Assembly (NCBI RefSeq): GCF_003019035.1
Contig: NZ_CP027447.1
Length of the DNA: 64,000 nt
From: Escherichia coli
GTDB lineage: Bacteria > Pseudomonadota > Gammaproteobacteria > Enterobacterales > Enterobacteriaceae
Direction: 5' to 3' (one strand)
Part shown: piece by piece, positions 42,516 through 61,985 of the stretch
Position numbering within the stretch: position 1 is the stretch's first letter
How the letters are laid out: each line of letters starts with the position of its first letter
Notes under the pieces: model-generated
Told to the model about the DNA's origin: nothing
Database searches by the model: none
What the model saw: only the letters and a program-made list of their open reading frames with translations
Translations under genes and position numbers: made by a program

Positions 42516-42590
42516 GTGGGATACCAGAAGATTATGTTATTTATTATTCAGTAACTTTATCCACAATGATGGGCGTAATTAATTAAATTC

Positions 42591-42803
42591 ATGTTATGTT
42601 TTTTAATTTATATCACTCTCCCTTTCATTCAGCTTGTCTATTTCATTTCCTCTGAAAAGAAACTAACTATTCACATTGTGCAGATGTTTCAGTTGTTATC
42701 ACAGGTATTCTATAATCTCAAAATGTTTTTAATGATGGATATGCTCGGAGTTGGAGATGCAATTAATATTAATACAAATAAAAATATCCGGCAGGTATGC
42801 TAA
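42591..42803 (+). CDS. yncH: Small hypothetical protein YncH (AT-rich)
   Basis: 70-aa ORF in an AT-rich interval; position after yncG. Confidence 0.55.
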   Translation: MLCFLIYITLPFIQLVYFISSEKKLTIHIVQMFQLLSQVFYNLKMFLMMDMLGVGDAININTNKNIRQVC

Positions 42804-43623
42804 AAGGATAAATGGCGTTCTCTGTATTTATTCGCAATTATCTGTAGGACAAATATGGAGAGCTTGATGAGTCAGAGCTAAAACAGCAATTGATTAATAA
42901 ACATGTTGATTTATTCAAGAAAATGGATGTATTTTAAATATTGATTCTTAATATAACCTAATCAATAGATTATCACGTGAGAGCTGCACATTATTGGAGG
43001 GGCAGGGGAAAACACCATTTTGGGAACAATGCATCAGGTACTCTTACCACTGAAGCAAGATCATCCGGGCACCAGGTGGTGGTGCAGTGCTTTGGAAATG
43101 GTCCCCTCGGGGGAGTTGTCATTATTTTCTATGCTATTTGCTTATTATATTCATCAGGTGAATTTAATAAATTCCTAATTTGAAATATCCACTATTAAGC
43201 TAGTGTTTAACGACGTTAAGATGGCAATGTGCAGATCATGTTATCAGGGTGGGGCGGTAGCGTATATTCCTTATACAAACCATCATTCATTTCAATGATT
43301 GTTATTGAATTATTTATTGTTGTGAATAAAAAGACATTATGAATATTGGTTTGACTTTGCATATCAGGTTTTTTATTACTCGCTGTAATGTACGAGCCTG
43401 TCGTGAATAACGTCGAGAACCCATCCGTTGCGTTTGTGATTATTTTGTTGACTAAACAGACACCCGTTTCTCTGAAGTAAAATCCCAGACTAAATCATCA
43501 CATAACCATGACATTTTTCTGATATTCCCCGGTAACGCCAGATGTCGACTCGCTTATCTCATCCGCCCGACATGTTGTACATGCAATATGTGCGGATTAT
43601 TATTCATTTTCACGGAGGTTGCT

Positions 43624-45732
43624 ATGTCAACCGGATTACGTTTCACGCTGGAAGTGGACGGCCTGCCACCGGACGCGTTTGCGGTGGTTTCCTTTCATCT
43701 CACCCAGTCACTCTCTTCACTTTTTTCCCTTGACCTTTCTCTGGTCAGTCAGCAGTTTCTCTCCCTTGAATTTGCGCAGGTGCTGGACAAAATGGCCTAC
43801 CTGACGGTATGGCAGGGCGATGACGTACAGCGCCGGGTGAAAGGCGTGGTGACCTGGTTTGAACTCGGGGAGAACGACAAAAACCAGATGCTGTACAGCA
43901 TAAAGGTGCGCCCGCCGCTGTGGCGGGCAGGACTGCGTCAGAACTTCCGTATCTTCCAGAACGAGGACATCAGAAGCATCCTCGGCACCATACTGCAGGA
44001 AAATGACGTCACGGAGTGGAGTCCGCTGTTCAGCGAGCCGCATCCTTCCCGTGAGTTTTGTGTCCAGTACGGCGAAACCGATTACGATTTCCTGTGCCGG
44101 ATGGCGGCGGAGGAAGGCATCTTCTTTTATGAGGAGCACGCGCAAAAAAGTACCGACCAGAGCCTGGTCCTGTGCGACACCGTGCGTTATCTGCCGGAGT
44201 CCTTTGAGATCCCCTGGAATCCGAACACCCGTACCGAGGTGAGCACCCTATGCATCAGCCAGTTCCTCTACAGCGCACAAATCCGCCCATCTTCCGTGGT
44301 GACCAAAGACTACACCTTTAAACGACCCGGCTGGGCAGGGCGTTTTGATCAGGAAGGCCAGCACCAGGATTACCAGCGCACACAGTATGAAGTGTATGAC
44401 TACCCCGGACGTTTCAAGGGTGCCCACGGGCAGAACTTTGCCTGCTGGCAGATGGATGGCTGGCGAAACAACGCAGAAGTGGCGCGCGGAACAAGCCGTT
44501 CGCCGGAGATATGGCCGGGACGGCGAATTGCGCTGACGGGGCATCCGCAGGCGAACCTGAACCGGGAATGGCAGGTGGTGGCAAGTGAACTGCACGGCGA
44601 GCAGCCGCAGGCGGTGCCGGGACGCAGTGGTTCAGGTACCACGCTGAATAACCACTTTGCGGTAATACCGGCAGACAGAACATGGCGGCCACAGCCGTTG
44701 CTGAAACCGCTGGTGGACGGCCCGCAGAGCGCCGTCGTGACGGGACCGGCAGGAGAAGAAATCTTCTGTGATGAACATGGCCGCGTGCGGGTGAAATTTA
44801 ACTGGGACCGTTATAACCCGTCAAACCAGGACAGTTCATGCTGGATCCGTGTGGCACAGGCGTGGGCAGGCACCGGGTTTGGTAACCTGGCGATACCGCG
44901 TGTGGGTCAGGAGGTCATTGTGGACTTCCTCAACGGCGATCCGGACCAGCCGATTATTATGGGGCGCACCTACCACCAGGAAAACCGCACCCCCGGCAGC
45001 CTGCCGGGAACAAAGACGCAAATGACCATTCGTTCAAAAACCTATAAGGGCAGCGGGTTTAATGAACTGAAGTTTGACGATGCGACAGGGAAAGAACAGG
45101 TCTACATCCACGCGCAGAAGAACATGAACACCGAGGTGCTGAATAACCGCACCACGGATGTGATAAACAACCATGCTGAGACCATCGGCAACAATCAGGT
45201 GATTGCGGTTACCAACAATCAGATACAGACGGTGGGCGTTAACCAGATAGAGACGGTGGGCAGTAACCAGATCATTAAAGTGGGCTCTGTTCAGGTGGAA
45301 ACGATTGGACTTGTTCGTGCGCTGACTGTGGGCGTGGCGTATCAGACGACGGTAGGTGGCATTATGAACACCTCGGTGGCCCTGATGCAGTCCTCGCAGA
45401 TCGGTTTGCATAAATCGTTGATGGTCGGGCTGGGTTATGACGTCAAAGTCGGAAATAACGTTACCTTCACCGTTGGTAAAACGAAAAAGGATGATACCGG
45501 GCAGACCGCGATTTACTCCGCCGGTGAGCATCTGGAACTCTGCTGTGGTAAGGCAAGGCTGGTGCTGACTAAGGACGGACAAATTTTTCTCAACGGCACA
45601 AAAATTCATTTGCAGGGTAAGGAGCAGGTTAATGGTGACTCACTGTTGATTAACTGGAACTGTGCAGCCTCGAAATCCCCACCGAAGACCCCTGATGAAA
45701 AGCAGGATACGCCGGATATGAGAGAGTACTGA
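43624..45732 (+). CDS. vgrG: Type VI secretion spike protein VgrG (orphan, no other T6SS core genes in window)
   Basis: ORF 43588-45732; start at MSTGLRFTLEVDGL with SD ggagg upstream; gp27/gp5-like N-terminus and C-terminal beta-helical repeats (VIAVTNNQIQTVGVNQIETVGSNQIIKVG). Confidence 0.9.
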   Translation: MSTGLRFTLEVDGLPPDAFAVVSFHLTQSLSSLFSLDLSLVSQQFLSLEFAQVLDKMAYLTVWQGDDVQRRVKGVVTWFELGENDKNQMLYSIKVRPPLWRAGLRQNFRIFQNEDIRSILGTILQENDVTEWSPLFSEPHPSREFCVQYGETDYDFLCRMAAEEGIFFYEEHAQKSTDQSLVLCDTVRYLPESFEIPWNPNTRTEVSTLCISQFLYSAQIRPSSVVTKDYTFKRPGWAGRFDQEGQHQDYQRTQYEVYDYPGRFKGAHGQNFACWQMDGWRNNAEVARGTSRSPEIWPGRRIALTGHPQANLNREWQVVASELHGEQPQAVPGRSGSGTTLNNHFAVIPADRTWRPQPLLKPLVDGPQSAVVTGPAGEEIFCDEHGRVRVKFNWDRYNPSNQDSSCWIRVAQAWAGTGFGNLAIPRVGQEVIVDFLNGDPDQPIIMGRTYHQENRTPGSLPGTKTQMTIRSKTYKGSGFNELKFDDATGKEQVYIHAQKNMNTEVLNNRTTDVINNHAETIGNNQVIAVTNNQIQTVGVNQIETVGSNQIIKVGSVQVETIGLVRALTVGVAYQTTVGGIMNTSVALMQSSQIGLHKSLMVGLGYDVKVGNNVTFTVGKTKKDDTGQTAIYSAGEHLELCCGKARLVLTKDGQIFLNGTKIHLQGKEQVNGDSLLINWNCAASKSPPKTPDEKQDTPDMREY

Positions 45733-45798
45733 TCCCGTACCTGTTCAGTATTCAGTAACAAACAAGCATTAAAAATAAACAGAAGAAGGAATTGAATC

Positions 45799-45815
45799 AT
45801 GAGCGGAAAACCAGC
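45799..45815 (+). pseudogene. 5' stub of an rhs gene (start codon plus about 5 codons) truncated by an H-repeat element
   Basis: atgagcggaaaacc matches the first 14 nt of the intact rhs at 53550 (atgagcggaaaacccgcg...), followed directly by the H-repeat left end cagggaaagatca at 45816. Confidence 0.7.
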
Positions 45816-47106
45816 CAGGGAAAGATCATCAGAAGTACACTTTTTGTACTAAACAATTCGCATTTTATGTTTAAAAATTGAGATATTCCTCATTACCTGA
45901 AGCTGTTTTTTATTGCTTATACATGATCAAATACTCCTTACATAATTAAGGAGAACAAAATGGAACTTAAAAAATTGATGGAGCATATTTCTATTATCCC
46001 CGATTACAGACAAGCCTGGAAAGTGGAACATAAATTATCGGACATTCTACTGTTGACTATTTGTGCCGTTATTTCTGGTGCAGAAGGCTGGGAAGATATA
46101 GAGGATTTTGGGGAAACACATCTCGATTTTTTGAAGCAATATGGTGATTTTGAAAATGGTATTCCTGTTCACGATACCATTGCCAGAGTTGTATCCTGTA
46201 TCAGTCCTGCAAAATTTCACGAGTGCTTTATTAACTGGATGCGTGACTGCCATTCTTCAGATGATAAAGGCGTCATTGCAATTGATGGAAAAACGCTCCG
46301 GCACTCTTATGACAAGAGTCGCCGCAGGGGAGCGATTCATGTCATTAGTGCGTTCTCAACAATGCACAGTCTGGTCATCGGACAGATCAAGACGGATGAG
46401 AAATCCAATGAGATTACAGCTATCCCAGAACTTCTTAACATGCTGGATATTAAAGGAAAAATCATCACAACTGATGCGATGGGTTGCCAGAAAGATATTG
46501 CAGAGAAGATACAAAAACAGGGAGGTGATTATTTATTCGCTGTAAAAGGAAATCAGGGGCGGCTTAATAAAGCCTTTGAGGAAAAATTTCCACTGAAAGA
46601 ATTAAATAATCCAGAGCATGACAGTTACGCAATGAGTGAAAAGAGTCACGGCAGAGAAGAAATCCGTCTTCACATTGTTTGCGATGTCCCTGATGAACTT
46701 ATTGATTTCACGTTTGAATGGAAAGGTCTGAAGAAATTATGCGTGGCAGTCTCCTTTCGGTCAATAATAGCAGAACAAAAGAAAGAGCCAGAAATGACGG
46801 TCAGATATTATATCAGTTCTGCTGATTTAACCGCAGAGAAGTTCGCCACAGCAATCCGAAACCACTGGCACGTGGAGAATAAGCTGCACTGGCGTCTGGA
46901 CGTGGTAATGAATGAAGACGACTGCAAAATAAGAAGAGGAAACGCCGCAGAATTATTTTCAGGGATACGGCACATCGCTATTAATATTTTAACGAATGAT
47001 AAGGTATTCAAGGCAGGGTTAAGACGTAAGATGCGAAAAGCTGCCATGGACAGAAACTATCTCGCGTCAGTCCTTGCGGGGAGCGGGCTTTCGTAATCTT
47101 TCCCTG
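45816..47106 (+). mobile_element. H-repeat (ISAs1-family) element, copy A, 1291 bp
   Basis: Terminal inverted repeats cagggaaaga (left) and tctttccctg (right); encodes a 378-aa transposase; nearly identical to copies at 50594-51884 and 58348-59638. Confidence 0.85.
45960..47096 (+). CDS. ISAs1-family transposase (H repeat-associated protein, YdcC/YhhI-like)
   Basis: 378-aa ORF with SD aaggag; three near-identical copies in the window. Confidence 0.88.
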
Positions 47107-48889
47107 GCTGCTGGAGTTCACGCGCGACCGCCTGCACCGGGAGACGGTGCGCAGCTTCGGCAGCATGGCAGGCAGTAATGCCGCATACGAACTGACCAGC
47201 ACATACACCCCCGCAGGCCAGTTACAGAGCCAGCACCTGAACAGCCTGGTATATGACCGTGACTACGGGTGGAGTGACAACGGCGACCTGGTGCGCATCA
47301 GCGGCCCGCGACAGACGCGGGAATACGGCTACAGCGCCACGGGCAGGCTGGAGAGTGTGCGCACCCTCGCACCGGACCTGGACATCCGCATCCCGTATGC
47401 CACGGACCCGGCGGGCAACCGGCTGCCGGACCCGGAGCTGCACCCGGACAGTACACTCACAGTGTGGCCGGATAACCGAATCACCGAAGACGCGCACTAC
47501 CTGTACCGTTACGATGAATACGGCAGGCTGACGGAGAAGACGGACCGCATCCCGGCGGGTGTGATACGGACGGACGACGAGCGGACCCACCACTACCGCT
47601 ACGACAGCCAGCACCGCCTGGTGTTCCACACGCGGATACAGCATGGCGAGCCACTGGTCGAGAGCCGCTACCTCTACGACCCGCTGGGACGGCGAATGGC
47701 AAAACGGGTCTGGCGGCGGGAGCGTGACCTGACGGGGTGGATGTCGCTGTCGCGTAAACCGGAGGAGACATGGTACGGGTGGGACGGCGACAGGCTGACG
47801 ACGGTGCAGACTGACACCACACGTATCCAGACGGTCTACCAGCCGGGGAGCTTCACGCCGCTCATCCGTATCGAGACAGAGAACGGCGAACGGGAGAAAA
47901 TGCAACGCCGCAGCCTGGCGGAGAAGTTACAGTCGGAAGGGAGTGAGGACGGTCACGGTGTGGTGTTCCCGGCTGAGCTGGTGAGGATGCTGGACAGGCT
48001 GGAGGAAGAAATCCGGGCAGACCGCGTGAGCAGTGAAAGCCGGGCGTGGCTTGCGCAGTGCGGGCTGACGGTGGAGCAACTGGCCAGACAGGTGGAGCCG
48101 GAATACACACCGGCGCGAAAAGTTCATTTTTACCACTGCGACCACCGGGGCCTGCCGCTGGCGCTCATCAGCGAAGACGGCAATACGGTGTGGAGCGGGG
48201 AGTATGATGAATGGGGCAACCAGCTTAATGAGGAGAACCCGCATCATGTGTATCAGCCATACCGCCTGCCGGGGCAGCAGTATGATGAGGAGTCGGGGCT
48301 GTACTATAACCGCAACCGGTACTATGATCCGTTGCAGGGGAGGTATATTACCCAGGATCCGATTGGGCCGGTGGGGGGGTGGAATCCCTATAGTTATGTG
48401 CTTATTAATCCAGCCCAGTTTATTGACCCAACAGGTTTAACTCAAGAGGACAATTGGACCTATGGTGAGGTAGGTAATAGCTGTGTTACGAGTCAACGCG
48501 ATTTTACTCCCCCGCCCGGACTTGCGGATATGAAAGCCAGCATTGGCGCTGCCTGCTCAAGAAACAATGCTTCCAGAAACTGCCACCCCGTAGATGGTAG
48601 TAATGCTTCTGCACCATCGGATAAAGCCGCATGGGAAAATATTCAAAATGCGACAAATGGTAAAGATTTATCTGGTGGTGGAAATATGTTTTGTGTAGGA
48701 AATGAGGACTGTGCGGTTGTTCATAGCTGTCGTGAAATAGTTAATGCTCGACACCCGGCAGGACGAGTGCGTGAACGTGTAACTCCGTTAACAACGTCAG
48801 GAACAGCAACGCTCAATGGAACAACAGTTTACTTTTATAATGATCCCCGGAATGGCAATTGTCCTGCTCACGAATATATTCCTCAATAA
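47107..48889 (+). pseudogene. rhsE: Orphan Rhs 3' fragment (rhsE-like): distal core repeats plus a divergent C-terminal toxin tip; no native start codon
   Basis: Begins abruptly at the right end of H-repeat copy A; 47107-48355 is collinear, without indels, with 55994-57242 of the intact rhs (about 93% amino-acid identity); DPIGP motif at 48356-48370; unique C-terminal about 173 codons. Confidence 0.8.
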
Positions 48890-48939
48890 AGAAAAGTGGC
48901 CAGACTAAGCTCTAGCCACATTTTTTGGAGATCCTTTTC

Positions 48940-49563
48940 ATGAAAAGGTTTTTTATAACATGTTGCGTTATGACATTATTTTTATTTGTTAAATGTAAAG
49001 CAGCGTGTGTAACTTCCTTATATGAGGTTCAGCAATCGCTCTTTACATACATTTATTTGATTAGACAAGACCCTGTTCATTTTGATTCATATATTAAGAA
49101 TGTGCATAACGAATTAAAAATATTCCATGATATTGATAAAGCAATGAATATAGCCTCAGATATGGTCAAAATTATTGATATAAAGACCCGTTTATCATTT
49201 AATAATGATTTATATATATTACAAGGGGAACGACAGTATGCAATAGTTAAGAGTGAAGGGGAAAGTAGTCAATTAAAATCATCAGCATTTATCATATCTA
49301 ATTACCCACTATTTAAAAACAAAGTTCTGTTAATTTTATCCGCTACTAGTCCCGTTCAGTTGGTTATATTGTCTTTTGATCAATGTCTTAATGTGGAGGT
49401 GTTATTTGATTCAATGTCTCCAGTTTTCGCTAAGTATAGAGAAGATATTAGTGCAACATTACCATTATGGAAGGTTATTTTGACAAAAAATGATATAGAA
49501 TTATATGAGTACCATAGAACAAATCCATACTCACTTAACAAATTATTGAGCATGTCAAAATAA
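48940..49563 (+). CDS. Putative immunity protein for the orphan Rhs-CT (AT-rich, signal-peptide-like N-terminus)
   Basis: ORF 48925-49563 (TTG) or ATG at 48940 (MKRFFITCCVMTLFLFVKCKAAC...); directly downstream of the toxin tip; low GC. Confidence 0.6.
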   Translation: MKRFFITCCVMTLFLFVKCKAACVTSLYEVQQSLFTYIYLIRQDPVHFDSYIKNVHNELKIFHDIDKAMNIASDMVKIIDIKTRLSFNNDLYILQGERQYAIVKSEGESSQLKSSAFIISNYPLFKNKVLLILSATSPVQLVILSFDQCLNVEVLFDSMSPVFAKYREDISATLPLWKVILTKNDIELYEYHRTNPYSLNKLLSMSK

Positions 49564-49748
49564 CGGTCAAGTATTCAACGTTGTAATATTATTCCTTTTG
49601 CTGAGTGTCTCGAACGGCTAAAGTTGACGTAAAATGCCACGTTTTGTGGGCAAACCGAATCGGTTAAAAAGCATGGTCCGGGAAAAGCTTAACATCAGCG
49701 CTATCGGTGCCAAATGTGCAGCAGGCCTTTCCAGCCTGATTACCAGGG

Positions 49749-50004
49749 CAGGGCGGGATCGTGAATATTGTGATGCATATCACATGAACTCCTGGTTTTA
49801 ACTTATTATTTCGGTTAAAATTTAACCACTGAAATCATTAGGATTCGAGCAAAGGGACGGCATATGGATATTCAAAATTTACTGGATTATATTTCTATAA
49901 TTCCTGATTATCGTCAGCAAGGGAAAATAAGGCATAAATTGTCAGATATTTTATTGCTCACTATATGTGCTATTATTGCCGGTTCTGATGAATGGGAGGA
50001 TATT
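49749..50004 (+). mobile_element. Truncated H-repeat variant (fragment D): left end plus first about 47 codons of transposase
   Basis: IR-like cagggcgggatcgtga at about 49749; ORF start 49864 ([48 protein letters not shown]) interrupted by the next element. Confidence 0.65.
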
Positions 50005-50593
50005 CAGGGCAAGATCATGAAAATCGTGATGTAAATCACAATTTTCAACCTGGCTTTAACTCCTTCAGGAGATTAAAATTTAACCTATGGAATAACTAAA
50101 AAGATAAAAAAGGACGCCAGATGAGTATTCAAAGTTTGCTTGATTATATTTCAGTGTTCCCTGATATACGACAACAAGGAAAGGTTAAACATAAATTATC
50201 TGATATTTTGTTTCTCACCGTATGTGCAGTAATTGCAGGTGCCGATGAGTGGCAGGAAATTGAAGATTTTGGACATGAAAGACTGGAATGGCTAAAGAAA
50301 TATGGTGATTTTGATAATGGCATTCCGGTCGATGACACCATTGCACGCGTTGTGAGTAACATTGACAGTTTGGCCTTTGAAAAGATGTTTATTGAATGGA
50401 TGCAGGAGTGCCATGAAATCACTGATGGTGAAATTATAGCAATAGATGGAAAGACCATAAGAGGCTCCTTTGATAAGGGAAAAAGGAAAGGAGCAATCCA
50501 TATGGTGAGTGCATTCTCGACTGAAAATGGTGTTGTACTGGGGCAGGTGAAAACGGAAGCCAAAAGTAATGAGATTACAGCCATTCCAGAGTT
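50005..50593 (+). mobile_element. Truncated H-repeat variant (fragment E) inserted into fragment D and itself cut by copy B
   Basis: Left end cagggcaagatca at 50005; transposase N-terminal 158 codons (ORF 50121..., diverged from copies A-C) ending where the copy B left IR starts at 50594. Confidence 0.7.
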
Positions 50594-51884
50594 CAGGGAA
50601 AGATCATCAGAAGTACACTTTTTGTACTAAACAATTCGCATTTTATGTTTAAAAATTGAGATATTCCTCATTACCTGAAGCTGTTTTTTATTGCTTATAC
50701 ATGATCAAATACTCCTTACATAATTAAGGAGAACAAAATGGAACTTAAAAAATTGATGGAACATATTTCTATTATCCCCGATTACAGACAAGCCTGGAAA
50801 GTGGAACATAAATTATCGGATATTCTACTGTTGACTATTTGTGCCGTTATTTCGGGTGCAGAAGGCTGGGAAGATATAGAGGATTTTGGGGAAACACATC
50901 TCGATTTTTTGAAGCAATATGGTGATTTTGATAATGGTATTCCTGTTCACGATACCATTGCCAGAGTTGTATCCTGTATCAGTCCTGCAAAATTTCACGA
51001 GTGCTTTATTAACTGGATGCGTGACTGCCATTCTTCAGATGATAAAGACGTCATCGCAATTGATGGAAAAACACTCCGGCATTCTTATGACAAGAGTCGC
51101 CGCAGGGGAGCGATTCATGTCATTAGTGCGTTCTCAACAATGCACAGTCTGGTCATCGGACAGATCAGGACGGATGAGAAATCCAATGAGATCACAGCTA
51201 TCCCTGAACTTCTTAACATGCTGGATATTAAAGGAAAAATTATCACAACTGATGCAATGGGTTGCCAGAAAGATATTGCAGAGAAGATACAAAAACAGGG
51301 CGGTGATTATTTATTCGCTGTAAAAGGAAATCAGGGTCGGCTAAATAAAGCCTTTGAGGAAAAATTCCCACTGAAAGAATTAAATAATCCAGAACATGAC
51401 AGTTACGCAATGAGTGAAAAGAGTCACGGCAGAGAAGAAATCCGTCTTCACATTGTTTGCGATGTCCCTGATGAACTTATTGATTTCACGTTTGAATGGA
51501 AAGGTCTGAAGAAATTATGCGTGGCAGTCTCCTTTCGGTCAATAATAGCAGAACAAAAGAAAGAGCCAGAAATGACGGTCAGATATTATATCAGTTCTGC
51601 TGATTTAACCGCAGAGAAGTTCGCCACAGCAATCCGAAACCACTGGCACGTGGAGAATAAGCTGCACTGGCGTCTGGACGTGGTAATGAATGAAGACGAC
51701 TGCAAAATAAGAAGAGGAAACGCCGCAGAATTATTTTCAGGGATACGGCACATCGCTATTAATATTTTGACGAATGATAAGGTATTCAAGGCAGGGTTAA
51801 GACGTAAGATGCGAAAAGCTGCCATGGACAGAAACTATCTCGCGTCAGTCCTTGCGGGGAGCGGGCTTTCGTAATCTTGCCCTG
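50594..51884 (+). mobile_element. H-repeat (ISAs1-family) element, copy B, 1291 bp
   Basis: Same IRs and length as copy A. Confidence 0.85.
50738..51874 (+). CDS. ISAs1-family transposase (H repeat-associated protein)
   Basis: 378-aa ORF, a few substitutions relative to copy A. Confidence 0.88.
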
Positions 51885-51896
51885 CTTTGTAATGGT

Positions 51897-52079
51897 ATGG
51901 CAGGAGGATATGAATTTGCAGTAAGTAAATTTGGTCAGTCGGCCTATGATGCCGCACAGGAAAAAGCATTAAATAACTATATGGAATTTGAAATGTTAGA
52001 TTTATTACAAAGCATGGGAGAGAATGTCAATCCAGATGAATATAAGCAGGCGCATGATAGAGTTGTTAATCCAAATTGA
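51897..52079 (+). CDS. Small ORF (60 aa) starting just outside the copy B right end; possibly the 3' remnant of a toxin tip
   Basis: ORF 51852-52079 begins inside the IS right end; first ATG outside the IS at 51897 (MAGGYEFAVSKFG...); stop overlaps the next gene. Confidence 0.35.
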   Translation: MAGGYEFAVSKFGQSAYDAAQEKALNNYMEFEMLDLLQSMGENVNPDEYKQAHDRVVNPN

Positions 52080-52093
52080 ATGCAGAGGGGAGT

Positions 52094-52657
52094 ATGTTAT
52101 TAAAACTGATAATGTTATTTTCAATATTTTTTATCCCGTTTTTGGCAGGTTGCAGTATGTTTGATGATGTTTTTGAGAAAAACTACTCATTGAGTTCTGT
52201 CGCCAGTTTTCCAGATGACGTTGATGAATTAAAAGAAATATGGTTTTTTTGTGAAAGATGTTTAAGTGATGAGCAGTGCGAAAATCATGACATTAAACAA
52301 TGTAGAGATGTAACTATTCCCGGTAGAGATGAAGCATTAAGTAAAGCTGTAGGCAGAGCCAATGTCGAAGCTGTTTACTTTCTTGTTGATGTGGCAAAAA
52401 CTGATGTCAATGGTATTACAGGTAAATATAAGGAAACACCATTAATTATTGCTGCATATTATGGAACTCAAGCACATCAGGATATAGCTGAATTTTTGCT
52501 ATTGCATGGGGCAGATATTAATAAAACTTACCCAGCCATTGGGCGAAATCCTCTAGGTGTCGCCAGATGGAAGCATAATGTCGATTTCGTTAATTTTCTA
52601 CTGAAGCATGGTGCTGAACCAGCAGTACATATGGGGTCGATTGAGAATAAAGAGTGA
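52094..52657 (+). CDS. Ankyrin-repeat lipoprotein (candidate immunity protein)
   Basis: ORF 52076-52657; ATG at 52094 preceded by gagggga; lipobox FLAGC; ankyrin-like repeats (TPLIIAAYYGTQAHQDIAEFLLLHGADIN, NPLGVARWKHNVDFVNFLLKHGAEP). Confidence 0.7.
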   Translation: MLLKLIMLFSIFFIPFLAGCSMFDDVFEKNYSLSSVASFPDDVDELKEIWFFCERCLSDEQCENHDIKQCRDVTIPGRDEALSKAVGRANVEAVYFLVDVAKTDVNGITGKYKETPLIIAAYYGTQAHQDIAEFLLLHGADINKTYPAIGRNPLGVARWKHNVDFVNFLLKHGAEPAVHMGSIENKE

Positions 52658-53100
52658 GATTTAACAAAAATGCAATTCATGCTCTCGCCTTGGGTGACGG
52701 TATTGATACTGCTTTTAAGTGTTCAGGAAAAATGGAAAGTGGTAAACCCTTAAAATCTTCGGGCAAATGGGATTACTCTGTTGGTGGGACAAATGGTGCC
52801 TTTCTTTATCTTAAAGACTATTCAAATATTTTGACGGCTGGCCACACAGGAAATCTGGCAGTTACTTTTCTTGGAAGTTACAATGCTCAATATTCAATAA
52901 ACGGAAACTCTCTGGATGTAGTTGTAACAAATTCTTCAACGATACAATCAGCGACACATCCCCCAATCCTGGAGTATACAAAATGGTGGCAGGATAATAT
53001 TGGTAATCCTTTGGATAGAAAATTTCAAAAAGGTCCCACGTCCCCAAAAACACAAACCATAAATTTACACTTTGATTTGTCATGTGCGTGCAAAAAATGA
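52654..53100 (+). CDS. Hypothetical protein, translationally coupled to flanking genes
   Basis: GTG at 52654 overlaps the upstream stop; alternative ATG at 52732; stop overlaps the downstream ATG (atga) at 53097. Confidence 0.5.
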   Translation: MRFNKNAIHALALGDGIDTAFKCSGKMESGKPLKSSGKWDYSVGGTNGAFLYLKDYSNILTAGHTGNLAVTFLGSYNAQYSINGNSLDVVVTNSSTIQSATHPPILEYTKWWQDNIGNPLDRKFQKGPTSPKTQTINLHFDLSCACKK

Positions 53101-53480
53101 AAATTTTATTTATGTTATTATTAATTATCTTGAGTGGATGTGATGGCGAAAATGATGCCAAATTTGTTGGGCAATGGCTTGCTGATATTGATGGTGATAT
53201 AAAATCAGAATTGATCGTGAAGGCAAATGGAATTTTTTATTTCAAGAATATGCCTATGGAGACAGTTTGTCGCGAGGATAAAACATATAAGGCTAATTTT
53301 TTCGGGGATTGGACTATTAATATTGACAATAGGATTGATATTTCAATGGATAATGTTAATTCTGAACGGTGTAATATTCCATCCTCGTATTTAATTAATG
53401 GGTTTTATGATGGTGGATATTTTTTATGTCAGAAAGGATTGTCTTTTTTCCAGACGGACCTGATGAGCCAGGTAATATGA
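53097..53480 (+). CDS. Small lipoprotein (candidate immunity protein)
   Basis: ORF 53082-53480; ATG at 53097 (MKILFMLLLIILSGCDGEND) with lipobox LSGC; AT-rich. Confidence 0.6.
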   Translation: MKILFMLLLIILSGCDGENDAKFVGQWLADIDGDIKSELIVKANGIFYFKNMPMETVCREDKTYKANFFGDWTINIDNRIDISMDNVNSERCNIPSSYLINGFYDGGYFLCQKGLSFFQTDLMSQVI

Positions 53481-53549
53481 TCATTTATATTAAACAATGA
53501 AAGTATTGATCGTGAGCAGATTAAATATATAAGAAATTAAGGAGATACC

Positions 53550-56500
53550 ATGAGCGGAAAACCCGCGGCACGCCAGGGTGATGCCACGCTGAAAGGCGGT
53601 CCGATAGTCCAGGGGTCAGCGGGGGTGCTGATAGGCGCGCCCACCGGCGTGGCGTGCTCGGTGTGTCCGGGCGGGATGACTTCGGGCAACCCGGTAAATC
53701 CGCTGCTGGGGGCGAAGGTGCTGCCCGGCGAGACGGACCTTGCCCTGCCCGGCCCGCTGCCGTTCATTCTCTCCCGCACCTACAGCAGCTACCGGACGAG
53801 GACGCCTGCCCCGGTGGGCGTTTTCGGCCCCGGCTGGAAAGCGCCTTCGGATATCCGCTTACAGCTACGTGATGACGCACTGATACTCAACGACAACGGC
53901 GGGCGGAGCATTCACTTTGAGCCGCTGCTGCCGGGGGAGGCGGTGTACAGCCGCAGCGAGTCAATGTGGCTGGTGCGCGGTGGTAAGGCAGCGCAGCCGG
54001 ACGGCCACACGCTGGCGCGACTGTGGGGGGCGCTGCCGCCGGATATCCGGTTAAGCCCGCATCTTTACCTGGCGACCAACAGCGCACAGGGGCCGTGGTG
54101 GATACTCGGCTGGTCAGAGCGGGTGCCGGGTACTGAGGACGTACTGCCAGCGCCGCTGCCGCCGTACCGGGTGCTTACCGGGCTGGCGGACCGCTTCGGG
54201 CAGACGCTGACGTACCGGCGTGAGGCCGCCGGTGACCTGGCCGGGGAAATCACCGGCGTGACGGACGGTGCCGGGCGGAAGTTCCGTCTGGTGCTGACCA
54301 CGCAGGCGCAGCGTGCGGAAGAGGCCCGCACCTCTTCGCTATCTTCTTCTGACCGTTCCCGCCCTCTCTCAGCCTCAGCGTTCCCCGACACACTGCCCGG
54401 TACGGAATACGGCCCCGACAGGGGCATCCGTCTTTCGGCGGTGTGGCTGATGCACGACCCGGCATACCCGGAAAGCCTGCCCGGTGCGCCACTGGCGCGG
54501 TACACGTATACGGAAGCCGGTGAACTGCTGGCGGTATATGACCGCAGCAATACGCAGGTGCGCGCTTTCACGTATGACGCGCAGCACCCGGGCCGGATGG
54601 TGGCGCACCGTTACGCGGGAAGGCCGGAGATGCGCTACCGCTACGACGATACGGGGCGGGTGGTGGAGCAACTGAACCCGGCAGGGTTAAGCTACCGCTA
54701 TCTTTATGAGCAGGACCGCATCACCATCACGGACAGCCTGAACCGGCGAGAGGTGCTGCATACAGAAGGCGGGGCCGGGCTGAAGCGGGTGGTGAAAAAA
54801 GAACTGGCGGACGGCAGCGTCACGCACAGCGGGTATGACGCGGCAGGAAGGCTCACGGCACAGACGGACGCGGCGGGACGGCAGACAGAGTACGGTCTGA
54901 ATGTGGTGTCAGGCGATATCACGGACATCACCACGCCGGACGGGCGGGAGACGAAATTTTACTATAACGACGGGAACCAGGTGACGGCAGTGGTGTCCCC
55001 GGACGGGCTGGAGAGCCGCCGGGCGTATGATGAGCGGGACAGGCTGGTAACGGAGACATCGCGCAGTGGGGACGTCATCCGGTATGCTTATGATAATCCG
55101 CACAGTGAATTACCGGCCACGACAACAGATGCGACGGGCAGCACCCGGCAGATGACCTGGAGCCGCTACGGGCAGTTGCTGGCGTTCACCGACTGCTCGG
55201 GCTACCAGACCCGCTATGAATACGACCGCTTCGGCCAGATGACGGCGGTCCACCGCGAGGAAGGCATCAGCCTTTACCGCCGCTATGACAACCGTGGCCG
55301 GTTAACCTCGGTGAAAGACGCACAGGCCCGTGAAACGCAGTATGAGTACAACGCCGCAGGCGACCTGACTGCCGTTATCACCCCGGATGGCAACCGGAGT
55401 GAGACACAGTACGATGGGTGGGGAAAGGCCATCAGCACCACGCAGGGCGGGCTGACGCGCAGTATGGAGTACGATGCTGCCGGACGTATCACCACGCTGA
55501 CTAACGAGAACGGCAGCCACAGCGACTTTAGTTACGATGCGCTGGACCGCCTGATACAGCAGGGCGGCTTTGACGGGCGGACGCAACGTTATCATTATGA
55601 CCTGACCGGAAAACTCACGCAGAGTGAAGATGAGGGGCTTGTCATCCTCTGGTACTACGATGAATCGGACCGTATTACTCACCGCACGGTAAACGGTGAA
55701 CCGGCAGAACAGTGGCGGTATGACGGCCACGGCTGGCTGAGAGAAATCAGCCACCTGAGCGAAGGCCACCGTGTTGCCGTCCACTATGGCTATGATAATA
55801 AAGGCCGCCTGACCAGTGAGCGCCAGACGGTGCATCACCCGGAGACGGGAGAGCTGCTCTGGCAGCATGAGACCGGACATGCGTACAACGAACAGGGGCT
55901 GGCAAACCGCGTCACGCCGGACAGTCTGCCGCCGGTGGAGTGGCTGACCTATGGTAGCGGTTATCTGGCAGGCATGAAGCTGGGCGGGACGCCGCTGCTG
56001 GAGTTCACGCGCGACCGCCTGCACCGTGAGACGGTGCGCAGCTTCGGCAGCATGGCAGGCAGTAATGCCGCATACGAACTGACCAGCACATACACCCCTG
56101 CAGGCCAGTTACAGAGTCAGCACCTGAACAGCCTGGTGTATGACCGTGACTACGGGTGGAATGACAACGGAGACCTGGTGCGCATCAGCGGCCCGCGACA
56201 GACGCGGGAATACGGCTACAGCGCCACGGGCAGGCTGGAGAGTGTGCGCACCCTCGCACCGGACCTGGACATCCGCATCCCGTATGCCACGGACCCGGCG
56301 GGCAACCGGCTGCCGGACCCGGAGCTGCACCCGGACAGTACACTCACAGTGTGGCCGGATAACCGCATCGCGGAGGATGCGCACTATGTCTACCGCCACG
56401 ATGAATACGGCAGGCTGACGGAGAAGACGGACCGCATCCCGGCGGGTGTGATACGGACGGACGACGAGCGGACCCACCACTACCACTACGACAGCCAGCA

Positions 56501-57803
56501 CCGCCTGGTGTTCTACACGCGGATACAGCATGGCGAGCCACTGGTCGAGAGCCGCTACGTCTACGACCCGCAGGGACGGCGAATGGCGAAACGGGTATGG
56601 CGGCGGGAGCGTGACCTGACGGGGTGGATGTCGCTGTCGCGTAAACCGGAGGTGACGTGGTACGGCTGGGACGGCGACCACCTGACGACGGTGCAGACCG
56701 ACAGCACACGTATCCAGACGGTATACGAGCCGGGAAGCTTCACACCGCTCATCCGCATCGAAACAGACAACGGCGAGCGGGAGAAAACGCAGCGGCGGAG
56801 CCTGGCGGAGAAGCTCCAGCAGGAAGGGAGCGAGGACGGACACGGTGTGGTGTTCCCGGCTGAACTGGTGAGGATGCTGGACAGGCTGGAGGAAGAAATC
56901 CGGGCAGACCGCGTGAGCGGTGAAAGCCGGACGTGGCTTGCACAGTGCGGGCTGGCGGTGGAGCAACTGGAAAAACAGGTGGAGCCGGAATACACGCCGG
57001 AACGCACACTGCATCTTTACCACTGCGACCACCGGGGACTGCCGCTGGCGCTTATCAGCGAAGACGGCAATACGGTGTGGAGCGCGGAGTATGATGAATG
57101 GGGAAACCTGCTTAATGAGGAGAACCCGCATCATGTGTATCAGTCATACCGTCTGCCGGGGCAGCAGCATGATGAGGAGTCGGGGCTGTATTATAACCGG
57201 AACCGGTACTATGACCCGCTACAGGGGAGGTATATCACCCAGGATCCAATCGGGCTAAGAGGTGAATGGAATCTGTATAAATATCCATTAAACCCTGTTC
57301 GGTTTATAGATTCTTTGGGTTTAAAATTCCATGTTAACGGTGATCCAAGTGATTTTAATCAGGCTGTTGAGTATTTAAAACAAGATTCACGAATGAAAGA
57401 AGCTATAGATTTTTTATCAAGCTCTGAAGAAACCATAAAGATAGAGTATATTGATGAAACCGACGTTAGATTTGACCCGGATAAAATGACTATATATTGG
57501 AATGGTAAGGCGGCTTTATTTTGTTCAACTGATTTAAAATCGAAATCACAATCACCTGCATTAGGTTTGGGGCATGAGTTTGCTCATGCGCACTTATATC
57601 TTATTGATAAGGATGGTTATATGGGGCTTGTGAGACGTGCGGATGAACAATATAAAAATAAAGAAGAGGCGAGAGTTATCACTTTAATTGAACAGCATGC
57701 GGCGAAAACTTTAGGTGAGTGTACCAGAACAGCATATAATGGAGTGTATTATCGTGTGAATACACCAACGCAGACGGCAACAATAAATGGCACGCCAGAA
57801 TAG
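53550..57803 (+). CDS. rhs: Full-length Rhs polymorphic toxin: PAAR-like N-terminus, YD-repeat shell, DPxGL autoproteolysis motif, C-terminal HExxH-containing toxin tip
   Basis: 1417-aa ORF with SD aaggag; N-terminal [11 protein letters not shown]...CSVCPGG; RHS/YD repeats; PxxxxDPIGL at 57243-57257; C-terminal about 180 aa contain [11 protein letters not shown]. Confidence 0.92.
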
Positions 57804-57815
57804 TGAGATTTTTTT

Positions 57816-58265
57816 ATGATGAAATATTTGATGGTTTTATTGTCTCTATTTTCTGCTTCGGTATTGGGGATGGGGCGAGTGAATGAATTGTGTGGAATAG
57901 ATAGTGTGAAAACGATAGAAATAATTAATCTTCCAGCATATGTTACCACCTTAACCCCGCTTAGCAAGGAAGGTCTCAAGAGAATATACAAACATAAAGT
58001 GGTGGTGAATGGAGTTAGCGATTTTTATGCTGGTGAGATAATTGATTTATTGCAAATGAAGTATTTCAGGAAGGAGGAGAATAACGATATAAGATGGGGG
58101 GTTGACATTGTTTCGAATAAAAATAATAAATGTGAAATTTATTTTGATGGTTTTGGTGAATGTGGAAGTGTGAATGGCATTAACGTATGTTTTGAAAAAA
58201 ATGAAATGATAGATTGGATTAAAAAAGAAATCCCTTTTCTGTCGCAAGAAATAGGTGGTCTTTAA
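57816..58265 (+). CDS. Putative cognate immunity protein with N-terminal signal peptide
   Basis: 149-aa ORF 12 nt downstream of the rhs stop; hydrophobic N-terminus MMKYLMVLLSLFSASVLG; AT-rich. Confidence 0.7.
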   Translation: MMKYLMVLLSLFSASVLGMGRVNELCGIDSVKTIEIINLPAYVTTLTPLSKEGLKRIYKHKVVVNGVSDFYAGEIIDLLQMKYFRKEENNDIRWGVDIVSNKNNKCEIYFDGFGECGSVNGINVCFEKNEMIDWIKKEIPFLSQEIGGL

Positions 58266-58322
58266 ATGGTAGGGCAATATTCAAAGACAGTATAGGTAAC
58301 TATTTGTATGGACATGTAAGGT

Positions 58323-58372
58323 CAGGGAAAGATCACGTAACGCTGCTCAGGGAAAGATCACGTAACGCTGCT
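58323..58372 (+). repeat. Perfect 25-bp tandem duplication of the H-repeat left terminus
   Basis: cagggaaagatcacgtaacgctgct occurs twice in direct tandem (58323-58347 and 58348-58372); measured from the second unit the element is 1291 bp, the same as copies A and B. Confidence 0.85.
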
Positions 58373-59638
58373 TTTTTGTACTAAACAATCCGCATTTTAT
58401 GTTTAAAAATTGAGATATTCCTCATTACCTAAAGCTGTTTTTTATTGCTTATACATGATCAAATACTCCTTACATAATTAAGGAGAACAAAATGGAACTT
58501 AAAAAATTGATGGAACATATTTCTATTATCCCCGATTACAGACAAGCCTGGAAAGTGGAACATAAATTATCGGATATTCTACTGTTGACTATTTGTGCCG
58601 TTATTTCGGGTGCAGAAGGCTGGGAAGATATAGAGGATTTTGGGGAAACACATCTCGATTTTTTGAAGCAATATGGTGATTTTGATAATGGTATTCCTGT
58701 TCACGATACCATTGCCAGAGTTGTATCCTGTATCAGTCCTGCAAAATTTCACGAGTGCTTTATTAACTGGATGCGTGACTGCCATTCTTCAGATGATAAA
58801 GACGTCATCGCAATTGATGGAAAAACACTCCGGCATTCTTATGACAAGAGTCGCCGCAGGGGAGCGATTCATGTCATTAGTGCGTTCTCAACAATGCACA
58901 GTCTGGTCATCGGACAGATCAGGACGGATGAGAAATCCAATGAGATCACAGCTATCCCTGAACTTCTTAACATGCTGGATATTAAAGGAAAAATTATCAC
59001 AACTGATGCAATGGGTTGCCAGAAAGATATTGCAGAGAAGATACAAAAACAGGGCGGTGATTATTTATTCGCTGTAAAAGGAAACCAGGGGCGGCTAAAT
59101 AAAGCCTTCGAGGAAAAATTTCCGCTGAAAGAATTAAATAATCCAGAGCATGACAGTTACGCAATGAGTGAAAAGAGTCACGGCAGAGAAGAAATCCGTC
59201 TTCACATTTTTTGCGATGTCCCTGATGAACTTATTGATTTCACGTTTGAATGGAAAGGTCTGAAGAAATTATGCGTGGCAGTCTCCTTTCGGTCAATAAT
59301 AGCAGAACAAAAGAAAGAGCCAGAAATGACGGTCAGATATTATATCAGTTCTGCTGATTTAACCGCAGAGAAGTTCGCCACAGCAATCCGAAACCACTGG
59401 CACGTGGAGAATAAGCTGCACTGGCGTCTGGACGTGGTAATGAATGAAGACGACTGCAAAATAAGAAGAGGAAATGCAGCAGAATTATTTTCAGGGATAC
59501 GGCACATCGCTATTAATATTTTGACGAATGATAAGGTATTCAAGGCAGGGTTAAGACGTAAGATGCGAAAAGCAGCCATGGACAGAAACTATCTGGCGTC
59601 AGTCCTTGCGGGGAGCGGGCTTTCGTAATCTTTCCCTG
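58348..59638 (+). mobile_element. H-repeat (ISAs1-family) element, copy C, 1291 bp
   Basis: Same terminal IRs; internal bases 14-25 differ from copies A and B (cgtaacgctgct versus tcagaagtacac). Confidence 0.85.
58492..59628 (+). CDS. ydcC: ISAs1-family transposase (H repeat-associated protein, ydcC-equivalent position)
   Basis: 378-aa ORF; position before yddH corresponds to ydcC of reference strains. Confidence 0.8.
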
Positions 59639-59744
59639 TTTGTTTATATAAATGCCAAGATATTCTTTCTCAAAATATTGACTTCAGATTAACCGTGTTC
59701 CACGCAAACAATTTTCAAACATTCATCAATAGATAAGGAATTCC

Positions 59745-60212
59745 ATGTTTATACGACCAGTCAAACCTTCAGATGTTGAACCATTACTGGATATGCTGCT
59801 TGCCAGTGGACAATTTGATCAAGATGGCCTTCATCATGTACAAAAAACACTAACACATTATTTCTCAGGTCAATCTGCCGATTTATGGTTTAGTGCAGAA
59901 CACTTAGGACTGGCAGGGATTGCCTATTGCGCTCCTGAAGTGATGACAAATGATGTCTGGAATTTATTAATGCTCTGGATCAGTCCTTCCCATCAGCGCC
60001 AGGGAGTGGGACATCTGCTGATTAACGAAATAGAAAAAGAGCTCACAATTAAACAGGCAAGACTACTTTTAGTAGAGACCTCCAGCCATATCGATTTTAG
60101 TGCCGCCCGCGCATTTTATACAAAACAGGGCTTTATCAATGAAGCTATAATACGCAATTACTATGATGTTGGTGAGGATAAATTAATCTTCACTAAGAAT
60201 ATACAATCGTGA
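59745..60212 (+). CDS. GNAT-family N-acetyltransferase
   Basis: 155-aa ORF; acetyl-CoA binding motif QRQGVGHLL; sits where a 77-aa tautomerase gene (pptA) is expected from recalled reference gene order. Confidence 0.7.
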   Translation: MFIRPVKPSDVEPLLDMLLASGQFDQDGLHHVQKTLTHYFSGQSADLWFSAEHLGLAGIAYCAPEVMTNDVWNLLMLWISPSHQRQGVGHLLINEIEKELTIKQARLLLVETSSHIDFSAARAFYTKQGFINEAIIRNYYDVGEDKLIFTKNIQS

Positions 60213-60277
60213 AATAAAATGTGCTTTTAACTCATATGGAAACATTGCTTAAAAAACCGGTCGCTGCATATGATTCT

Positions 60278-60847
60278 TTAGCCCGCGGTGACTCGCTTCC
60301 CGCTGGTAACAAACGTGCCAGCGCCTAAATGATGCAACGTATTGAGCTTATCATCATCAAACTGCCAGCGGCCTTCGACAAATACCCGTGCGTCTGCCGC
60401 TGCTGATACCACTTCGCCAAACAGCGTGTCGTATTTCTCTTGCGCGGAAGTCGCTGGTAGCAATCGGCACTCCATCCACGCCAGACATTTCTCTTCAACA
60501 AGTGGCAAACCAAGCACCGGACCTTCCACCACCGGAATGCCATAGCAATTAAATTTATCCTCTTCACGCCCAGATACACTTCCCACTGCCCACGTCCAGT
60601 TAGTCGCTGCAACGCCTGGGATAACGATGCCAAATTTACCGTTACGCTCAATCAACTCCCTGGTCCATGTCGACTTATCTACCACAATCGCCACGCGTGG
60701 CGGTTCAAACTCTACGGGCATAGACCAGGCTGCTGCCATCACATTACGTCGCTGTGATTTTTCATCAAAAGTTGTTATCAAAACTGTGGGGCCGTGGTTT
60801 AACAGACGGCTGGCATGGTGTAATTCGACGGGAATGAATTGGCTCAC
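60278..60847 (-). CDS. yddH: Flavin reductase-like protein
   Basis: 189-aa ORF; flavin reductase-like fold; synteny next to nhoA. Confidence 0.85.
   Translation of the reverse strand: MSQFIPVELHHASRLLNHGPTVLITTFDEKSQRRNVMAAAWSMPVEFEPPRVAIVVDKSTWTRELIERNGKFGIVIPGVAATNWTWAVGSVSGREEDKFNCYGIPVVEGPVLGLPLVEEKCLAWMECRLLPATSAQEKYDTLFGEVVSAAADARVFVEGRWQFDDDKLNTLHHLGAGTFVTSGKRVTAG

Positions 60848-61880: not shown

Positions 61881-61985
<105 letters not shown>

Follow-up and report, generated by a model that had tools for sequence, protein, structure and literature searches.

We analysed a 64,000-nucleotide stretch of Escherichia coli DNA (RefSeq assembly GCF_003019035.1, contig NZ_CP027447.1; hereafter the window), in which an interval of ~17.7 kb between yncG and yddH is occupied by a vgrG gene, rhs genes and pieces of rhs genes, candidate immunity genes and insertion-sequence (IS) elements. 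The gene order, yncE-ansP-yncG-yncH-[vgrG/rhs]-...-yddH-nhoA, agrees with that of the K-12 rhsE region (b1455-b1461) and with that of strains E. coli C, D8 and 88-3493. The original prediction, made from the window alone, had placed an accessory island at 42520-60215, and this delimitation is good. The conserved left flank, yncG, ends at 42515, and 42513 is the last base common to strains with other cargo; homology to the Nissle-type strain EcN (EcN_Sk) breaks off at 42513 and picks up again at 59683, and that to K-12 and E. coli C picks up again at 60270, close to the yddH end of the interval. All island genes lie on the plus strand (Table 1). A near-identical genome, in effect of the same lineage, is that of strain SCU-301, which is colinear with positions 1-42364 at 99.993% identity; this part of the window holds housekeeping genes only.

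Table 1. Features of the yncG-yddH interval and its two flanking genes. Positions are those of the window; aa, amino acids; GC, G+C content; ORF, open reading frame; CT, tip.
Feature	Position	Strand	Evidence or remark
yncG, glutathione S-transferase family	41898-42515	+	Pfam GST domains; annotated in SCU-301, E. coli C, K-12, D8, EcN
yncH (DUF5445), 70 aa, GC 0.30	42591-42803	+	PF17520 E 9e-41; K-12 annotation
AT-rich locus-specific spacer, 809 bp, GC 0.37	42804-43612		Upstream of vgrG
vgrG (TssI), intact, 702 aa, spike protein of the type VI secretion system	43624-45732	+	TIGR03361 623.9 bits, cut-off 186
rhs 5' stub, 17 nt, ATGAGCGGAAAACCAGC, of the rhs originally next to vgrG	45799-45815	+	Colinear with E. 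coli C until 17 nt into rhsD
H-repeat copy 1 (ISAs1 family, ISEc1/ydcC type), 1291 bp	45816-47106	+	Transposase ORF 45960-47096
rhs core 3' third (to ~48330) and tip CT1	47107-48889	+	NF041261 positions 833-1261 only
imm1, candidate CT1 immunity gene, GC 0.29	48925-49563	+	Directly 3' of CT1 in window, SCU-301, D8, 88-3493; hydrophobic, signal-like N-terminal segment
IS1 transposase remnant, limits approximate	49600-49750	+	Annotation of colinear SCU-301, D8, 88-3493 stretch
ISAs1-family 5'-end remnant, degenerate	49749-50004	+	71% identical to 50005-50261; SCU-301 'Transposase family protein' fragment
Second ISAs1-family element, 5' 589 bp, ISEc26-like (K-12 yncI type)	50005-50593	+	Cut off by H-repeat copy 2
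H-repeat copy 2, 1291 bp	50594-51884	+	Transposase ORF 50738-51874
CT-X, final 64 codons of a PLA2-like Rhs tip, catalytic part absent	51885-52079	+	97.3% colinear with D8 rhsI end
Ankyrin-repeat lipoprotein, candidate orphan immunity gene for CT-X	52076-52657	+	Pfam Ank_2 E 5e-21; lipobox LAGC
ORF148 (CT-Y), from an unnamed family of polymorphic-toxin tips, truncated at the N-terminus	52654-53100	+	Homologues
ORF132, lipoprotein	53082-53480	+	Lipobox LSGC in sequence; ORF annotated at same place in D8
Full-length rhs, 1417 aa	53550-57803	+	NF041261 2717 bits, cut-off 2000, positions 1-1261
imm2, candidate CT2 immunity gene (RhsH 'dsORF-h1' type)	57816-58265	+	N-terminal signal-like segment
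25-bp tandem duplicate of H-repeat copy 3 left end	58323-58347	+	Sequence read
H-repeat copy 3, 1291 bp	58348-59638	+	Transposase ORF 58492-59628
GNAT N-acetyltransferase, 155 aa, intact	59745-60212	+	Pfam Acetyltransf_7/1/10
yddH, flavin reductase, conserved right flank	60278-60847	-	Pfam Flavin_Reduct; genome annotations
H-repeat event junction sequence			ATGAGCGGAAAACCAGCCAGGGAAAGATCATC

The first large gene of the island encodes the VgrG spike protein of the T6SS (type VI secretion system). Its gp27-like and gp5-like domains are both present above curated family cut-offs (TIGR01646, 441.8 bits against a cut-off of 121.8), with the Pfam domains Phage_GPD, Phage_base_V and Gp5_trimer_C, and among solved structures T6SS spikes are the nearest to it (PDB VgrG 7q5p, E 5e-100). 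The start codon had been put at 43588 and lies instead at 43624.

The rhs sequences of the island had been described as fragments. This holds for the core piece that precedes CT1 but not for 53550-57803, where the gene is complete and its 1417-residue product exceeds the NF041261 cut-off. The full-length Rhs protein consists of a short PAAR-like N-terminus, DUF6531, 12 YD (RHS_repeat) stretches and a hyperconserved core end, and is also matched by TIGR03696. Its closest solved relatives are Tse5 (8cp6, E 1e-118), P. protegens RhsA, Tse15 and Tre23. Residues 48-145 of the Rhs protein can be aligned to the start of the Tse5 chain 8cp6_B, and the aligned part is preceded by a 45-residue segment with a PAAR-like signature; the N-terminus gives a weak match to the PAAR-like chain 9rce_c (E 0.13). 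The core runs from 53550 to ~57215, with a GC of 0.636 and a GC at third codon positions (GC3) of 0.76, and is followed by the CT2 tip at ~57216-57803, with a GC of 0.38.

The CT2 tip carries the sequence HEFAH, an HExxH zinc site, inside a block that is invariant among its relatives. These include Hafnia proteins annotated as 'M91 family zinc metallopeptidase', which are 43-45% identical to CT2 (E 4e-23), and 16 of the 19 aligned CT2 relatives match PF14891 (Peptidase_M91), the best at 5e-9. On the HEFAH motif and the homology through its relatives, we predict that CT2 is an M91/NleD-like (HopH1-type) zinc metallopeptidase; a direct comparison with the Pfam M91 family gave no match at E<=0.01, and because CT2 stays below the family cut-off we call it M91-like rather than a family member. 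An AlphaFold2 (AF2) model of CT2 has a pLDDT of 94.5, and a PDB sequence search with CT2 matched the Rhs linker only. About 1000 genomes carry a tip that is 88% identical to CT2 in DNA sequence, and the gene downstream of it is annotated there as 'RHS element protein dsORF-h1', which is the type of the imm2 gene that follows CT2 in the window.

The rhs gene that originally stood next to vgrG is broken. Colinearity with E. coli C extends over the first 17 nt of rhs; beyond the H-repeat copy that follows, core sequence sets in again near rhs nt 2445, so that nt 18 to ~2444 of the vgrG-adjacent gene are gone. The remaining core piece is 93.7% identical to 55994-57255 and is matched by TIGR03696, and the CT1 tip that it carries is Cys-rich, with a GC of 0.47. 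Since the CT1 fragment has no N-terminal region, it would not be loadable on a spike. In D8 and 88-3493 the CT1 tip sits on full-length rhs genes, both annotated as frameshifted. Six CT1 homologues were found, all unnamed and one with an Rhs-type prefix, and searches of Pfam, NCBIfam and the PDB for a toxin activity of CT1 returned no match. At the CT1 core/tip boundary (48323-48340), DPIGP replaces the usual DPxGL in 3 of 3 strains examined.

Two more truncated tips lie between the second H-repeat copy and the full-length rhs gene. The complete CT-X tip, found on rhsI of D8, bears the motif CRNHDICY, which we take to be of the phospholipase A2 (PLA2) type; the PLA2 label comes from a reading of this motif. 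In D8 the ankyrin lipoprotein gene directly follows the rhs gene with CT-X. CT-Y has 17 homologues, the longer of which begin with an Rhs-type ...DPLGL / YD prefix and contain a WLTGTGPRHR segment that is missing from ORF148. ORF132 is probably, from its position, the orphan immunity gene for CT-Y. No family in Pfam or NCBIfam was found for imm1, imm2 or ORF132. By eye, imm1, the ankyrin protein, ORF132 and imm2 each begin with a signal-like or lipobox segment, and these starts suggest that the toxins paired with the four candidates act in the cell envelope. Work on orphan Rhs loci of Salmonella reportedly describes detached ('orphan') tips and C-terminal displacement.

Five H-repeat copies or remnants had been predicted, and three complete and two partial ones are present. 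The complete copies are 97.9-98.5% identical to one another and encode intact transposases of 378 residues that differ by 1-4 residues (NF033564, 417 bits; cut-off 70). Their ends are CAGGGAAAGAT (CAGGGAAAGAT...ATCTTTCCCTG in copy 1); as terminal inverted repeats, the left and right ends agree at 13-20 of 25 bases. The partial element at 50005-50593 is 97% identical to K-12 yncI and to the pseudo-H-repeat of E. coli C, and contains the Pfam domain DDE_Tnp_1_assoc and a truncated DDE domain. H-repeat copy 1 stands in place of the lost rhs segment; copy 2 truncates the yncI-type element on its left and the interior of the CT-X tip on its right. When the flanks were compared, no target-site duplication was found at any of the three copies. 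This fits IS-associated adjacent deletion, or recombination between copies, rather than three simple insertions, and does not argue against membership of the ISAs1 family. At the duplicated end of copy 3 (58323-58372 region), positions 13-25 differ from those of copies 1 and 2.

In strain EcN, whose yncG/yddH site holds an unrelated island of T6SS cargo, each edge of that island bears an H-repeat remnant: a left-end piece beside yncG and an internal piece beside a GNAT remnant (L008 of EcN, 11757-11912 and 239-467). These remnants hint that H-repeats may mark the exchange points of the yncG/yddH hotspot.

The base composition of the island follows its modules. In 500-bp windows its GC ranges from 0.30 to 0.68, with a standard deviation (SD) of 0.116; for 169 windows from the left flank (42.5 kb) the SD is 0.039. 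Of the island windows, 57% lie beyond the full GC range of the flank and 83% beyond the flank mean +/- 2 SD, which is far more than chance. The rhs core has a GC of 0.63-0.64 and a GC3 of 0.76, and vgrG has 0.55 and 0.67, respectively. Tips, immunity genes and orphan ORFs fall to 0.29-0.47, with a GC3 of 0.26-0.33; within this group imm1, imm2, the ankyrin ORF and ORF132 have a GC of 0.29-0.36. The H-repeats have a GC of 0.405 and the flank one of about 0.50. The sliding-window GC and GC3 values thus bear out the alternation that the original prediction had seen by eye, far from a uniform composition, and its assignment of modules (GC-rich core, AT-rich tips and immunity genes, H-repeats) was correct. 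The alternation stems from a mosaic, in which a GC-rich vgrG/rhs-core block of one origin is combined with AT-rich tips, immunity genes and H-repeats of other origins.

The same site was compared in other strains, and genome counts were made over 5426 complete E. coli genomes. A single one of these, SCU-301, covers 80% or more of the interval; its island has the same order of blocks and junctions and 99.5% overall identity. The spacer-vgrG junction is intact in 3380 of the genomes (62%). In K-12 the left arm is shared until 43556 and then jumps straight into the rhs core, so there is no vgrG and rhsE is a pseudogene. E. coli C has one vgrG-rhsD-ydcD unit, followed by two H-repeats and pptA. 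The order in D8 is vgrG-rhsI(CT-X)-ankyrin-ORF-rhsII(CT1)-imm1-IS1'-H-repeat-further fragments, and that in 88-3493 is vgrG-rhs(CT1)-imm1-IS1'-H-repeat-detached CT2-imm2-another rhs. The B2 strain EcN carries unrelated cargo at this site, PAAR-vgrG-DUF4123-..., twice. A genome in which yncG is joined directly to yddH did not turn up, though no targeted search for one was made. The comparison of these differing sets shows that the content is accessory and variable; far from being identical in all related genomes, the architecture of the window recurs in SCU-301 alone.

Because the island contains 1.3-kb H-repeats and rhs cores of 1.3-3.7 kb, the arrangement might be an artefact in which an assembler mis-joined these sequences. 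Long repeats at 94-98% identity are often mis-joined by short-read assemblers. We consider an artefact extremely unlikely here: the separately deposited SCU-301 genome has an identical order of blocks and junctions, the repeat copies are 1.5-6% different and hence distinguishable, and each junction unites sequences known from this locus in other strains. The exception in SCU-301 is an in-frame loss of 972 bp of rhs core (54942-55913; 324 codons) between two copies of CACGCCGGAC (L001 ~16110-16119), which may be a genuine deletion at microhomologies of the YD repeats or else a collapse in the assembly; many frameshifts are also annotated in this part of SCU-301.

The three co-oriented, near-identical H-repeats with intact transposase ORFs bracket the toxin and immunity blocks, and in EcN remnants of H-repeat ends border the resident island on either side, as would be expected if the island, or an H-repeat-bracketed segment such as 50594-59638, were a composite transposon or a mobile genomic island that moves as a unit. 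This explanation is very unlikely, and we rejected it for a composite transposon and for a classical mobile island alike. The H-repeats lack target-site duplications, there is no tRNA gene in 38000-64000 and no integrase among the ORFs, and no repeat as long as 11 nt is common to the two edges. Moreover, the inner segment 51885-53560 is rare and was seen at this locus only: it occurs in 3 of the 5426 genomes, namely SCU-301, D8 and a 1.4-kb record without context, and in D8 it stands at the same locus with no H-repeat on its left.

The original prediction was right that vgrG stands without any other T6SS structural gene in the window; positions 1-42364 are colinear with the annotated SCU-301 sequence, in which no T6SS gene is listed. 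A complete T6SS-1 cluster elsewhere in this near-identical genome explains the lone vgrG. At aspV, ~1.3 Mb from the island, SCU-301 carries tssB, C, E, F, G, J, K, L, H, A and M, tagH, vasI, two hcp genes, vgrG and rhs. A whole-genome check for a T6SS core cluster had been called for, and the full set was found in SCU-301, standing in for the window's own genome on the strength of its identity over 42,364 bases. The island and the T6SS-1 module of SCU-301 share 97.9% DNA identity in vgrG and 96.8% in the rhs core, and the homology begins just 11 nt ahead of the vgrG start codon. The vgrG-rhs block of the island is therefore a paralogue of the end of the T6SS-1 cluster, placed behind a different AT-rich upstream region. 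That the site once held a T6SS core cluster, of which the island would be a remnant, was also considered and rejected; EcN has PAAR, vgrG and adaptor cargo there and no tss core genes, which marks the yncG/yddH site as a hotspot for auxiliary cargo.

The stretch upstream of vgrG (42520-43620) had been called AT-rich and devoid of convincing genes. It is AT-rich, with a GC of 0.30-0.37, but it contains yncH, which is part of the variable content because it is missing between yncG and PAAR in EcN; a literature search on yncH found unrelated papers only. The spacer between yncH and vgrG is 98.6% identical to K-12 as far as 43556 and is 96-98.6% conserved among the strains with the same left arm. 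It lies outside the block shared with the T6SS-1 vgrG, which begins at 43613, and is the sole place available for a vgrG promoter, which presumably lies within it. An Rfam search of 42520-43620 at E<=1 found no family, and neither promoter-like sites (3, with 5.5 expected from shuffles) nor terminator-like sites (1, with 0.8 expected) were in excess there. Across the whole island promoter-like sites were not above shuffles either (36 compared to 29 +/- 5). Silencing of AT-rich DNA such as the spacer by H-NS is plausible on general grounds; for the silencing or regulatory role that the original prediction had suggested, the searches brought no support other than the AT-richness itself. The sequence TCGATAAATT, which we take to be the high-affinity H-NS motif, occurs with at most one mismatch 9 times in the window, where 5.4 are expected, and 0 times in the island.

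With high confidence, we read the interval as the E. coli RhsE locus, an auxiliary T6SS vgrG-rhs effector island at the hypervariable yncG/yddH site that has reached a rare, IS-scrambled arrangement; the original prediction had not named it as RhsE. The features of an Rhs element are all present: a GC-rich YD core (by definition one that encodes about 1200 aa), a hyperconserved core end (PxxxxDPxGL / DPXG-(18)-DPXG) with an AT-rich tip, downstream ORFs, detached fragments and H-repeats. Nothing speaks against the identity of the locus as RhsE, and the weak points all concern function.

We infer the following course of events. The island VgrG would serve as a spike of the T6SS-1 machine encoded ~1.3 Mb away at aspV, and the full-length Rhs protein would bind this spike through its short PAAR-like N-terminus. 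The YD-repeat cage would enclose the C-terminal M91-like zinc protease, which autoproteolysis at the DPIGL motif would free, and the toxin would be fired into neighbouring bacteria while the exported imm2 product would shield sister cells. Three modules would be remnants that can no longer be delivered: the core-3'/CT1 piece and imm1, the PLA2-like tail and its ankyrin lipoprotein, and the truncated CT-Y with its lipoprotein. These remnants may retain immunity against the toxins of related strains, and may supply homology for a swap of the tip of the live gene by C-terminal displacement.

The arrangement itself probably arose from a D8-like or 88-3493-like ancestor, by an H-repeat-associated deletion (rhs nt 18 to ~2444) together with recombination between H-repeat copies and between rhs cores. 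Compared to D8, the blocks running from the CT-X tail to the rhs 5' end and from the core 3' end through CT1 to imm1 are swapped in order. In 88-3493 the CT2-imm2 pair follows an H-repeat as a detached tip, whereas in the window it is joined to a full core, which is the product expected of C-terminal displacement by core-to-core recombination (PMC2935791).

The weak points on the side of function are as follows. The PAAR family PF05488 reaches E 0.039 (14.6 bits against a cut-off of 27) over residues 2-20 only. CT2 itself is under the cut-off of PF14891 (E 0.064, 14 bits against 25), and a Foldseek comparison of the CT2 model with the PDB gave non-significant zincin matches only (best E 0.088). 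In SCU-301, tssH of T6SS-1, the island vgrG and the island rhs are annotated as frameshifted pseudogenes, the last with its core 972 bp short; the system may be decaying in this lineage, or the SCU-301 assembly may contain errors. The annotation in SCU-301, together with the destroyed first rhs, the two further truncated tips and the pseudogene that is all K-12 retains at the locus, would also suit a functionless relic, kept by drift and with no live effector. We regard a relic as unlikely. The 702-residue vgrG, the 1417-residue rhs, imm2 and the three transposases are uninterrupted in the window, with family models matched end to end; the SCU-301 frameshifts, given the 99.5% identity of the two islands, look like assembly errors; and the junction of spacer and vgrG is retained in most complete genomes.

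Beyond the reading of the interval as an RhsE effector island, a bolder proposal, possible but rather doubtful, is that Rhs-CT2 is an antibacterial M91-like zinc protease acting in the target periplasm, or that the three intact H-repeats actively shuffle the toxin/immunity cassettes at this site instead of serving as passive homology. Action in the periplasm is proposed because imm2, like three other immunity candidates, carries a putative export signal. To our knowledge, the NleD/HopH1 (M91-like) type has so far been characterised experimentally only in type III anti-host effectors.

Among known systems, the RhsE element of K-12 (yncH, rhsE b1456, ydcD, yncI, ydcC, pptA) and its fuller versions in E. 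coli C, D8 and 88-3493 occupy the same site, with yncG, yncH and spacer 96-98.6% identical to those of the window. They share with the island the rhs core family, a ydcC-type H-repeat (97%) and a yncI-type partial H-repeat. In K-12, vgrG is missing, as are the first ~2.2 kb of rhs, whereas the island has both vgrG and one complete rhs. In E. coli C the vgrG-adjacent rhs forms a single vgrG-rhs-ydcD unit, whereas here it is cut by an H-repeat. Unlike K-12 and E. coli C, the island has a second rhs, the complete one with CT2, 7.8 kb downstream behind two orphan immunity modules. The T6SS-1 module at aspV resembles the island in that its vgrG-rhs is followed by a small ORF, an IS1 remnant and an ISEc1 H-repeat; the island differs from it in having no hcp or tss genes, and in its upstream region, tips and immunity genes.

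Tse5 is an rhs effector encoded beside a dedicated vgrG, outside the main cluster. The vgrG1c-tse5 locus of P. aeruginosa (PA2685-PA2684) is like the island in that its Rhs protein has a short N-terminal segment ahead of the cage; it differs in belonging to another genus, in its pore-forming tip and in being without H-repeats or arrays of detached tips.

'Pathogenic island 2' of the Shiga toxin-producing E. coli O22:H8 strain 154, which consists of VgrG, Rhs-ART and Rhs-peptidase M91 (bioRxiv 10.1101/2024.03.05.583533), is likewise a vgrG island outside T6SS-1, with no EagR/adaptor gene and with an Rhs protein that ends in an M91-type HExxH region. Compared by description, the Rhs-M91 of strain 154 is split by a premature stop and has lost its PAAR region, whereas the Rhs with the M91-like tip in the window is intact. 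According to the same preprint, no T6SS-associated toxin of this type has been characterised experimentally (bioRxiv 10.1101/2024.03.05.583533). HopH1/NleD-like metallopeptidase domains in RHS and polymorphic toxins were catalogued in 2012 (PMC3482391).

The account of rhs loci by Hill and co-workers, as summarised by Jackson et al. (PMC2935791), describes a G+C-rich core with an A+T-rich extension, an association with vgr, and, downstream, GC-poor DNA in which pieces of cores and tips occur. The island matches this Hill/Jackson description on every point. As in the detached tips of Jackson et al. 2009 (PMC2935791), core and tip fragments and immunity genes surround a full-length rhs, and a core GC peak marks the detached tip; the island departs from that pattern in that the detached CT1 is found upstream of the live gene, and in that breakpoints fall at H-repeat ends, not at core homology alone. 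The genome paper of E. coli W places rhsE at b1455-b1461 and H-repeats beside tips (PMC3032704). In E. coli, rhsE has a vgrG of its own, downstream of which it lies, and the long Rhs proteins of the species are termed PAAR-Rhs (PMC7216683); the PAAR region is required for translocation according to Ma et al. 2017, as cited in PMC7216683. Such vgrG-rhs islands have been treated as modules that supply the core machine with additional cargo (PMC7216683, PMC6730261).

At the right end of the window the order is yddH, nhoA, IS621, yddE. The GNAT gene at the right end of the island stands where K-12, E. coli C and D8 have the tautomerase gene pptA (59639-60277). At least 80% of the GNAT segment is present in 431 genomes, mostly at ~94.8% identity and including B2-type strains. 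In Nissle-type EcN this gene looks degenerate, with an annotated ORF of only 216 nt. The right flank (60270-64000; yddH, nhoA, yddE) is 93.9-95.1% identical to K-12 and EcN, compared to 98.6% and 97.4%, respectively, for the left flank (37651-43556); it looks like a divergent allele and was perhaps imported along with part of the island. IS621 (IS110 family, 1276 bp, 61932-63207) lies between nhoA and yddE in the window and in SCU-301 but not in K-12, D8 or EcN; its transposase ORF encodes 326 aa (62035-63015, minus strand). Just upstream of it, at 61873-61911, there is a weak match to the Rfam family naRNA4 (E 0.11, under the gathering score). An IS200/IS605-type unit lies at ~19411-21133, with a tnpA pseudogene at ~19411-19917 (minus strand) and a tnpB/insQ RNA-guided nuclease gene at ~19925-21133 (plus strand); these coordinates were carried over from the SCU-301 annotation through the colinear match.

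The island is a new allele of the long-known RhsE element and is ordinary in kind: the locus type, the GC mosaic, the detached tips, the immunity genes and the H-repeats have been described since the 1990s. Past annotation it matters little. The allele is a clean example of how, through IS elements and core-to-core recombination, one Rhs toxin is put out of use and another takes its place with the old immunity genes kept, and the intact Rhs protein with its M91-like tip, together with its exported immunity candidate, is the sole part that could repay experiments.

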